Positions 6,572 to 59,182 of a stretch of DNA of 64,000 nt are shown here, in pieces. Position 1 is the stretch's first letter. Each line of letters begins with the position of its first letter. This DNA is from Candidatus Woesearchaeota archaeon (lineage in GTDB: Archaea; Nanobdellota; Nanobdellia; Woesearchaeales; GW2011-AR9). Where the stretch lies: the NCBI GenBank assembly GCA_018696595.1, contig JABHQW010000005.1:1-64000 (forward strand), given 5' to 3'. The notes under the pieces are model-generated. The model did no database searches. It saw only the letters and a program-made list of their open reading frames with translations, and was not told the origin of the DNA. The position numbers and the translations under genes are program-made.

Positions 6572-6636
6572 ATTACAAATAAATCTTTTTTATCTTATAA
6601 ACTTTACCATTTGAATAAAGTTTAATTATTAATTTT

Positions 6637-6750
6637 GAGCAACATCGGGTTCGCTTCTTTTAAGGATTTTATAAGTGCGGGCCCTTCCCGTAAGGATCCC
6701 CCGCAGATTAATGTTTAGTTTTATAGAACACTCACATATTGATGGTGCTC
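6637..6750 (-). ncRNA. Putative structured RNA, family A copy 1 (unassigned)
   Basis: Closing stem GAGCACCAUC/GAUGUUGCUC, inner UGCGG/CCGCA stem capped by CC-UUAC-GG; shares UGUGAG, UCUGCGG and GAAGCGAACC with 12819-12939. Confidence 0.65.
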
Positions 6751-6766
6751 AAAAATAAGTACTTGC

Positions 6767-7414
6767 TTACCTTTCAATAACTATCCCTAATGGTCTAACA
6801 GCATCTACAAACAAAATTTTAGCCCAACCCAAATAAGGAATCTTAATCATACCTTTACCAAAGATCCGATCTTCAGAGATCTTCTCTTCTCCAAGACTGC
6901 CAGATAAACTCTGCTTATTATGATCTCCTTTAGTTTGGTAATAATACGAACCCTCTTCTTCCCAAACTTTTACAACTCGATGAATTATTGGTTGAATTTG
7001 ACTCCCTTGAAAGATTAATACATCTCCGGGATCAATATTATCTTTATTTGCTCTCCAGAGAATAATCACATCCCCTTTTCTAAAACCATCCCTAAATGGA
7101 AATTTCTTAAACTCTTCTTTAGTAATTCCGTTAGATTCATACCATTGTCCACAAACTTGCCAATAACTGTCAAAAGATTCTGGGAATTCAACAAATTTCT
7201 GACCACAAATAATGTCATTATGGGTTCCGTGTTCCATACTTTCAGAGATTACTGCTACTATCGGAAATGAAGTTCCTAAAACAAGTCCTAAAACTGGATA
7301 AACAATAAACCTAATAACTAAGAAAGCTACGATTATATTAGCGATCCAACTCCAGACGCTATCGTCTTCCCAAAAGAACTTCCAAGCTCTCTTACTATGA
7401 TCTCTTACTCCCAT
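6767..7414 (-). CDS. Signal peptidase I (S26, archaeal/Sec11 type)
   Basis: TM segment, catalytic Ser in VISESME, GDVIIL, IIHRVV, TKGDHN. Confidence 0.9.
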   Translation of the reverse strand: MGVRDHSKRAWKFFWEDDSVWSWIANIIVAFLVIRFIVYPVLGLVLGTSFPIVAVISESMEHGTHNDIICGQKFVEFPESFDSYWQVCGQWYESNGITKEEFKKFPFRDGFRKGDVIILWRANKDNIDPGDVLIFQGSQIQPIIHRVVKVWEEEGSYYYQTKGDHNKQSLSGSLGEEKISEDRIFGKGMIKIPYLGWAKILFVDAVRPLGIVIER

Positions 7415-12358: not shown

Positions 12359-12811
12359 ATGGACTTAAATTTCGGTGGAAAAGCAAAGAAAGAAGAGCAA
12401 CAACAACCAGAACAGCAAGGGTTTGATCCTGCTAAGTTATATCTCTGGGTGAAAGCTTTAGAAAGCAAAATCAATAATCTTTTAAGAGAAGTAGATTTGA
12501 TTAAGAATGATTTCATTAAGAAAAATAACGAAGTTAGAAAAGAATTGAAAACATTTAATGAAGATTTACTTGATTCTAAACATAAACAAGATAAAACTAT
12601 TGAAAAGATTGATTTAATTATTAAAGAGCTTAAACAAACTGCGGGTGTTGAAGAAGTACAAACATTAAAGAAGTATATGGAATTGTGGAATCCATTAAAC
12701 TTTGTTACTCAAAGAGATTTAGACCGAAGAATTGAAGAGAAACTTAATAATCCCAGGTATAGTAAATTAAAAGAAGTTAAAAAAGAAGAAACGCATAGTC
12801 CGTTTAATTAA
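12359..12811 (+). CDS. Coiled-coil hypothetical protein
   Basis: Heptad-rich ORF ending ..LKKYMELWNPLNFVT..; resembles proteins I recall as conserved in DPANN archaea. Confidence 0.75.
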   Translation: MDLNFGGKAKKEEQQQPEQQGFDPAKLYLWVKALESKINNLLREVDLIKNDFIKKNNEVRKELKTFNEDLLDSKHKQDKTIEKIDLIIKELKQTAGVEEVQTLKKYMELWNPLNFVTQRDLDRRIEEKLNNPRYSKLKEVKKEETHSPFN

Positions 12812-12818
12812 AACAAAT

Positions 12819-12939
12819 GAGCAGCGCCAAGTTGTGAGCGTTTTATCATAAAAAACATAAGTCTGCGGTGGGGGTCGTCCCTTACGGGGGTGAACCGCAC
12901 TAAGAAAATAAACATAAAGGAAGCGAACCGGCTCTGCTC
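12819..12939 (+). ncRNA. Putative structured RNA, family A copy 2 (unassigned)
   Basis: Closing stem GAGCAGCGCC/GGCUCUGCUC, UGUGAG, UCUGCGG..CCC-UUAC-GGG..CCGCAC, A-rich linker, GAAGCGAACC. Confidence 0.65.
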
Positions 12940-12979
12940 AACAAATAACAATTATAAAATAAATAAAAAGGTGATAATA

Positions 12980-59076: not shown

Positions 59077-59182
59077 GCACCCGTAGTTTAATGGCTAGAA
59101 TCCGGGCCTTCCATAAGGCCTGTAATCAACTACTCGCTTTTGAAGTGAGCCTGTGATCCGGGTTCGAATCCCGGCGGGTGCA
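59077..59182 (+). tRNA. tRNA-Gly(UCC) with a 34-nt canonical intron (59114-59147)
   Basis: GCACCCG/CGGGTGC acceptor; CGGGC-CTTCCA[intron]A-GCCTG; BHB helix CUUC/GAAG. Confidence 0.92.

Follow-up and report, generated by a model that had tools for sequence, protein, structure and literature searches.

Among the hairpin-folding MITEs of prokaryotes are Correia/NEMIS of Neisseria, ERIC/IRU, RUP and the SM-type elements of Sulfolobus. The subject of this report, Family A, came to attention through two copies in a stretch of 64,000 nucleotides from a Candidatus Woesearchaeota archaeon (contig JABHQW010000005.1, positions 1 to 64,000; hereafter the window). It is probably the folded core, about 125 nt long, of an order-specific MITE family, with the window copies as stranded examples. 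Like the prokaryotic MITEs, Family A is small, non-coding, multi-copy and intergenic, it appears to be moved in trans, and in most genomes it comes with terminal inverted repeats and target duplications. However, it departs from the hairpin MITEs in several ways. Its centre is conserved above its ends, it has a four-helix fold with compensatory change, and it contains an invariant non-Watson-Crick motif. It is also framed by at least eight different terminal repeats, or by none.

The MITEs derived from IS4/IS5-family elements offer a match at the ends. The transposase of this family is of the DDE_Tnp_1 kind, and the IS903 group yields 9-bp duplications. Family A resembles such MITEs in its 15-nt repeats, which start GGC, and in its 8-9-bp duplications, but the transposase is missing from most of the assemblies that bear it. 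Nor is the interior of Family A an internally deleted IS, because the IS with matching ends has no core. Another comparison is with REP sequences and REPINs, for which RAYT (Y1/HUH) transposases provide the mobility. Family A is likewise dispersed, intergenic and hairpin-shaped, and it keeps structure over stem sequence, so that its stems covary. In contrast to REPINs, which are without terminal repeats and 8-9-bp duplications, the relatives of the window copies have both, and the core is far more elaborate. A REPIN/RAYT origin was rejected on separate grounds: the genome of the window has no PF01797 match, and the same search was positive in six control genomes.

One last resemblance is to the K-turn RNAs bound by L7Ae-family proteins. 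The host is an archaeon and the element places tandem sheared G.A pairs beside an asymmetric internal loop. However, the Family A motif lies within a regular helix, and it occurs again in a tail, below a tri-loop. A standard K-turn was rejected, since a loop of 4-5 nt is followed by two Watson-Crick pairs and only then by the G.A pairs, instead of a 3-nt bulge directly before G.A. Three further candidates were set aside. The ends of the closing stem, P1, do not contain the RYYYAAC ... GTTRRRY core sites of an integron attC, and a bulge-helix-bulge intron and a small ORF were dismissed by eye.

Two Copies in the Window

Both elements lie where the sequence-only reading had placed them, and they share one architecture. 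Copy 1 (minus strand) occupies 6637-6750 and copy 2 (plus strand) 12819-12939. All of the motifs that the reading had described are found in each: a closing stem, UGUGAG, an AU-rich hairpin, UCUGCGG..CCGCAC, an A-rich linker and GAAGCGAACC. The closing stems of the two copies are unlike in sequence and still paired, with one C.U mismatch in each, and an alignment of copy 1 with copy 2 gives 82% column identity. One feature had been overlooked. UGUGAG and GCGAAC are the two strands of a second helix, P2, and pair with each other.

Copy 1 is closed by a P1 whose 5' strand (6741-6750, minus) pairs with 6637-6646. An AT-rich extension of this stem adds 8 bp on each side, which makes the whole hairpin 6629-6758, and the covariance-model match covers 6633-6753 (103 bits, E 2e-19). 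The 5' strand of P2 (GUGAGU, 6730-6735) pairs with 6649-6654 (GCGAAC) in the order two Watson-Crick pairs, tandem G.A/A.G, two Watson-Crick pairs. The apical domain, 6676-6705, is made up of P3 (6700-6705 with 6676-6681), a shortened G-run loop and the P4 hairpin (6686-6697), whose loop is UUAC. Copy 2 (plus strand) is closed by pairing of 12819-12828 with 12930-12939 and is matched by the covariance model over 12816-12943 (127 bits, E 1e-24). Its P2 pairs GUGAGC (12834-12839) with GCGAAC (12923-12928), again with tandem G.A. The AU-rich hairpin, P2a, follows at 12840-12856; this part differs among copies, and there is compensatory change in the copy at C6:121281. The apical domain, 12864-12899, comprises P3 (12864-12868 with 12895-12899), the G-run (12869-12874) and the P4 hairpin (12878-12889).

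Each copy sits between co-directional ORFs and, as had been noted from the sequence, starts shortly 3' of a stop codon. The stop codon of ORF 6767-7414(-) precedes copy 1 by 16 nt, or by 8 nt if the stem extension is counted, and copy 2 begins 7 nt after the stop of ORF 12359-12811(+). The four proteins that flank the two copies have no Pfam family in common. A processing element in 3' UTRs or intercistronic RNA had been one of the first suggestions. It fits the position of both window copies, but the family as a whole does not share this siting, given that orientation is about random at 26 loci in other genomes (see below).

The element had been called unassigned, and Rfam searches agree. By cmscan only a tRNA in the window exceeds the gathering score. 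A sensitive scan of both copies (E up to 10) gave chance-level matches only, and a scan of 14 diverse members (E up to 1) gave no match. The tRNA itself, at 59077-59182 (53 bits), is 106 nt long and is therefore probably intron-bearing; ARAGORN reports zero tRNAs in the window.

A Conserved Four-Helix Fold

The fold can be followed from the outside inward. P1 is a closing stem of 9-14 bp or longer, with a highly variable sequence. Inside it is an asymmetric loop with a conserved AA at its start. P2 is modeled as six pairs (NNGANN/NNGANN) with tandem sheared G.A pairs at the middle. Further inward come a small hairpin that varies, then P3, then an internal loop rich in purines and with a near-invariant G-run, and finally P4, the loop of which has four bases of the form NUNC. 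The nucleotides CAA after P1 are unpaired and invariant. Equally invariant, in all of the 42 distinct sequences, are the G and A on both strands of P2. Two copies have the strands of P2 exchanged (5' ACGAAC, 3' GUGAGU), with retention of the tandem-G.A motif.

That the stems covary had been proposed from the two window copies, and the larger sets agree. RNAalifold, given a plain MAFFT alignment of nine copies, returns 25 pairs, of which 16 show compensatory double changes. In a larger alignment (43 members, 18 genomes), the figures from which are generous because it was fitted to the covariance model, and so leans to structure, and because its member sequences are related, canonical pairs fill 91.1% of pair cells compared with 67% in shuffles and 36-50% with slid partners, and double-change cells number 269 compared with 83 and 26-51, respectively. 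The nine-copy RNAalifold result and the exchange of P2 strands are independent of this model-fitted alignment.

Distribution Among DPANN Archaea

The genome of the window (G000; 1.19 Mb, 97% complete, 8 contigs) contains nine full copies on six of its eight contigs, with scores of 103-131 bits (E 1e-19 to 1e-25) in a search that combined nhmmer with a covariance model made from the genome's own copies. Two further partial relatives have only the apical hairpin in common with Family A. The core pattern has 0 matches in 100 shuffles of the window. Members measure 114-130 nt, or about 165 nt with ends, and no frame stays open through the sense strand.

A covariance-model search of DPANN relatives had been suggested as a check, and it uncovered further family members, all in one order. 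The model, which describes the fold of about 125 nt, finds the element in 18 of 40 related genomes, including 14 of 23 from the same family. Across the order, 25 of 151 sampled genomes are positive, with 0-21 copies per genome, and the 15 positive genomes of a phylum-wide sample all belong to one order. Among the genomes searched, none outside that order has Family A. Judging from these genome sequences, Family A appears to be restricted to one order of DPANN archaea (Woesearchaeota-type) and to be patchy within it. No protein family recurs beside the element in 30 loci compared. Viral contigs gave at least 117 matches to a loose core pattern, of which the covariance model accepted 0 of 80 scored; the pattern is too loose and says nothing about viruses.

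The Complete MITE in Related Genomes

In most of the other genomes the core lies between 15-nt terminal inverted repeats bounded by target duplications of 8-9 bp (G022, G013, G018, G012, G038, G003, G005, and G206). The usual order is inverted repeat, P1 with the core, a small 3' tail hairpin and the second inverted repeat, and the commonest repeat is GGCTCTGTCCTRAAT. The tail is 13-14 nt long and links the 3' strand of P1 to the right repeat. It forms a mini-hairpin that covaries, and it repeats the tandem-G.A motif below a loop of three or four bases. The full form reaches 20 near-identical copies in G206, where the core is more conserved than the terminal repeats, and two of the G000 copies are close relatives of this repeat-bearing form. 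A non-autonomous mobile RNA/DNA hairpin had been among the first candidates, and it is the one that the data support. The element is multi-copy, patchy and absent at the orthologous sites of congeners, and in other genomes it has the inverted repeats and duplications of a transposon.

Which enzyme might move such a unit? The proposal is that a DDE transposase of the IS4/IS5 kind would act on it in trans, and that the 8-9-bp duplications would be its signature. One clue is the terminal repeat of a copy in G025 (L026), GGCTAATATGAAACC, which also forms the ends of an IS in G036. This IS (L228:1081-2099) is complete at 1019 bp, with a DDE_Tnp_1 ORF, perfect terminal repeats of 15-20 nt and a 9-bp duplication. 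The covariance model found no core in G036. Another clue comes from G206, in which eight contig ends break 27-55 nt into a longer repeat that opens with the MITE's own inverted repeat and then runs into either of two interiors. The broken sequences resemble the two termini of an IS that is missing from the assembly. A full-length IS for the commonest repeat was sought by scanning genomes and metagenome contigs with the G206 end, and this gave contig ends only. No IS with matching ends was found for the remaining repeat types, or in G000.

Transposase domains follow the element loosely. Among 40 relatives, PF01609 is present in 18, PF13610 in four and PF12762 in two. PF01609 and the element occur together in 10 genomes, the element alone in eight, PF01609 alone in eight and neither in 14, which is a weak overlap. 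An IS6 origin was rejected, PF13610 being absent from the MITE-rich genomes; two IS6 loci were inspected and have no matching ends. An IS1595 origin was rejected as well, since the domain is found in only two of the 40.

Some copies are unusual in other respects. The odd-ended copies L210 and L213 (G038 and G012) are flanked by direct repeats of 13 and 17 nt, longer than the usual 8-9 nt. In G206 (L250-L269) an antisense frame is open through most of the MITE of about 170 nt, with a median of 51 codons. This may be a mere effect of pyrimidine-rich composition, although such a frame would allow read-through of antisense insertions. G206 itself (contigs L282-L286) is Woesearchaeota-type, and its public title, "uncultured Methanosarcinales archaeon," looks like a mislabel.

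Solo Copies and Orthologous Sites

The copies in G000 have no shared outer repeats in their 350-nt flanks, only P1 and stem extensions that are specific to each copy. Four of them are 6-13 nt past a stop codon, which leaves no space for decayed 15-nt ends. In addition, there are zero domain matches in G000 for reverse transcriptase, Y1 transposase, TnpB, IS6, IS1595 or IS4/IS5. Closed by their own stem alone, in a genome in which the transposase was not found, these copies are therefore regarded as stranded "solo cores" in short intergenic spacers. All nine, including the two in the window, would have lost their outer ends or never had them.

Solo copies are also present in G004, and those of the two genomes lie 1-13 nt past stop codons. 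Copy 2 is abutted at its 5' and 3' ends by a perfect 7-nt direct repeat, AACAAAT (12812-12818 and 12940-12946, plus strand), possibly a target-site duplication. A solo copy in G004 (L014) has a direct repeat of 6 nt, and copy 1 has no target duplication. Overall, duplications are clear in just 2-3 of about 15 solo copies; the flanks of the others are mostly inverted, not direct, and merely lengthen the stem.

The orthologous sites in congeners are informative. In G001, from the same genus, the copy 2 site is clean and empty, with about 30 nt from stop codon to ATG, and the copy 1 site holds unrelated sequence. G002 has another short hairpin at both sites (L057:~1925-2000 for copy 2, L065:~1440-1500 for copy 1). 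These hairpins belong to a family with the motif GAGTASTGAGTMATGGGT, and their outer stem resembles P1 of the window copies. They may be a core-less relative, a relic or the mark of a shared insertion hot spot. A covariance-model search for relics at the orthologous sites gave no significant match, its only yield being short P1-like hairpins (7-11 bits).

A Proposed Separable Module

The commonest terminal repeat, GGCTCTGTCCTRAAT, also frames a sister core, A'. In A' the apical P3/G-run/P4 domain is as in core A, and a plain 9-bp helix takes the place of the G.A helix. G000 has two copies of A'. The converse arrangement is seen with P1. The P1 sequence of five G000 copies also closes another interior of about 45 nt at seven other sites (C4:80735-80802, C6:75314-75383, C6:246350, C3:349857, C3:284178(-), C5:44878 and C7:14492). 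This second hairpin family has the closing stem GAGCAGCGCC followed by AA, as in P1 of the five Family A copies, around a different interior. Four of its copies are nested in a larger MITE with ends beginning TTTGTATACTGC. Taken across genomes, at least eight different terminal repeats frame one core.

G005 provides a view of the junctions. Here two different palindromic MITEs each have one arm split by the core and the opposite arm unbroken, and one of the core/MITE junctions has a 7-8-nt duplication. G005 also contains derivatives without half the core, which are found at separate loci with their own duplications, one of them a perfect 8 bp. Since these core-deleted derivatives reached new sites, an intact fold is not required for transposition mediated by the terminal repeats. 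All copies of the host MITE in G005 bear the core or a remnant of it, and so a core-free ancestor was not found. On a smaller scale, a double-hairpin insertion of 45-60 nt is present in or beside the P4 loop at L049, L053, and L054 (G005) and at L192 and L193 (G022). It occurs in both core A and A', in different genomes and in both orientations. The P4 loop seems to attract insertions of an even smaller element.

The best account of these arrangements, as far as sequence comparison goes, is that the core would be a separable module that has been joined with many different ends.

RNA or DNA?

The fold may be used as RNA or as folded DNA. In G000, eight of nine copies are co-directional with their neighbours. 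In contrast, at the 26 loci of other genomes the orientation to flanking ORFs is about random by crude ORF calls (relative to the upstream ORF, 10 same and 16 opposite; relative to the downstream ORF, 12 and 12). The stems contain 20 G.U cells against 14-28 A.C cells, and therefore show no excess of RNA-type wobble. Folding with RNA parameters gives equal results for the sense and antisense strands. Folding with DNA parameters favours the sense strand in 41 of 62 copies, merely a hint because the copies are related. The tandem G.A pairs and the G-run are strand-specific, which means that one strand matters.

Competing Explanations

Several observations count against the MITE account. The window copies have no terminal repeats beyond P1, copy 1 is without a target duplication, four G000 copies leave no space for decayed ends, eight of the nine are co-directional with their neighbours, and most MITE-bearing assemblies lack a transposase. 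The account also gives no reason for the conservation of the fold, which a single round of transposition does not need but which endures longer than the ends. Moreover, the strand-specific G.A pairs and G-run point to a one-strand function that a cut-and-paste DNA element does not need. Perhaps selection keeps a single-stranded form of one strand of the element, either as folded DNA or as a transcript of the element. The core might then be a cis-acting module that aids the long-term survival of the transposon lineage, for instance by keeping the two arms together or rendering insertions tolerable, and not a host RNA gene. A more far-reaching form of this idea makes the core a functional single-stranded module (RNA or folded DNA), with two tandem-G.A sites for protein binding or catalysis, selected throughout the order. 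That is unlikely. It is unlikely to the same degree that, as this reading also has it, carriers swapped their ends at least eight times around a "cargo" fold that aids MITEs or is itself mobile by a mechanism that reads structure. What if mobility belongs to the P1-closed core in a simpler way? In such a case the hairpin would insert with a 6-7-bp duplication, and would time and again have entered, or been trapped between, the ends of unrelated MITEs, which then multiplied it as cargo. This would suit the solo copies of G000 and G004, which are too near to stop codons for outer repeats, and the direct repeats at copy 2 and L014. It would also suit the one-armed insertions in G005 with their single duplicated junction, the variety of repeats around one core and an IS in G036 that shares a repeat and has no core. 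However, G000 offers no enzyme candidate even though it is 97% complete, the tips of P1 lack conservation from one subfamily to the next, so few solo copies have a clear duplication, and a core-free ancestor of the G005 host MITE did not turn up. A self-mobile core is therefore rather doubtful, if a serious competitor to a MITE moved through its ends.

A functional RNA, expressed by the host or by the element, has to be considered alongside these. It could be a cis-acting mRNA element (a 3'-end stabiliser, a processing site or a terminator) or a small RNA acting in trans, with a protein bound at the tandem-G.A helices. Four strongly covarying helices, the invariant unpaired G.A/A.G, G-run and CAA, the recurrence of the tandem-G.A motif in P2 and in the tail hairpin of the full MITE, and the degree of conservation of the G206 core all speak for an RNA, as do the co-directional copies of G000, several of them just past a stop codon. 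The random orientation elsewhere does not, nor do the turnover of copies between congeners, the absence of an associated gene family, the lack of G.U excess, the equal folding of both strands with RNA parameters or the two Watson-Crick pairs that separate loop from G.A pairs and so distinguish the motif from a standard K-turn. On balance a functional RNA is quite improbable. A new self-cleaving ribozyme carried by a mobile element is a very remote prospect. The general picture would suit it (a compact multi-helix fold, invariant unpaired purines, a mobile carrier and no Rfam match), but no known ribozyme core is present, the orientation is random, and a DNA transposon of this sort has no need of RNA cleavage. 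In particular, a hammerhead core was rejected because the G.A-pair junction joins two helices rather than three. The thought that UGUGAG and GAAGC recall TnpB omega-RNA has fared worst. An RNA that serves a transposon nuclease or recombinase as guide or scaffold (TnpB/IscB omega-RNA or IS110 bridge RNA) would be in keeping with that loose resemblance and with a large internal loop that varies between copies. Against it, G000 has no match to PF07282 or PF01797 and thus neither TnpB nor Y1 TnpA, no neighbouring gene recurs over the 30 loci, the element is bounded by its own stem and not by an IS end, and Rfam is blank at E up to 10. Such a guide RNA is scarcely credible. The preferred reading is still that of a MITE core, with the copies of the window stranded.

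Implications

For annotation, the practical consequence is that Family A and its relatives should not be labelled RNA genes, riboswitches or omega-RNAs. Much of the scarce intergenic space in Woesearchaeota-type genomes is taken up by these elements and several sister hairpin families. Family A is an odd transposon in that its conserved part is the centre and not the ends, and in that copies survive in genomes with no visible transposase. Should the fold prove functional, Family A would be an uncommon instance of selection, at the level of a DNA transposon, for a structured nucleic-acid module, and would offer a way to study how mobile DNA lasts in very small genomes.
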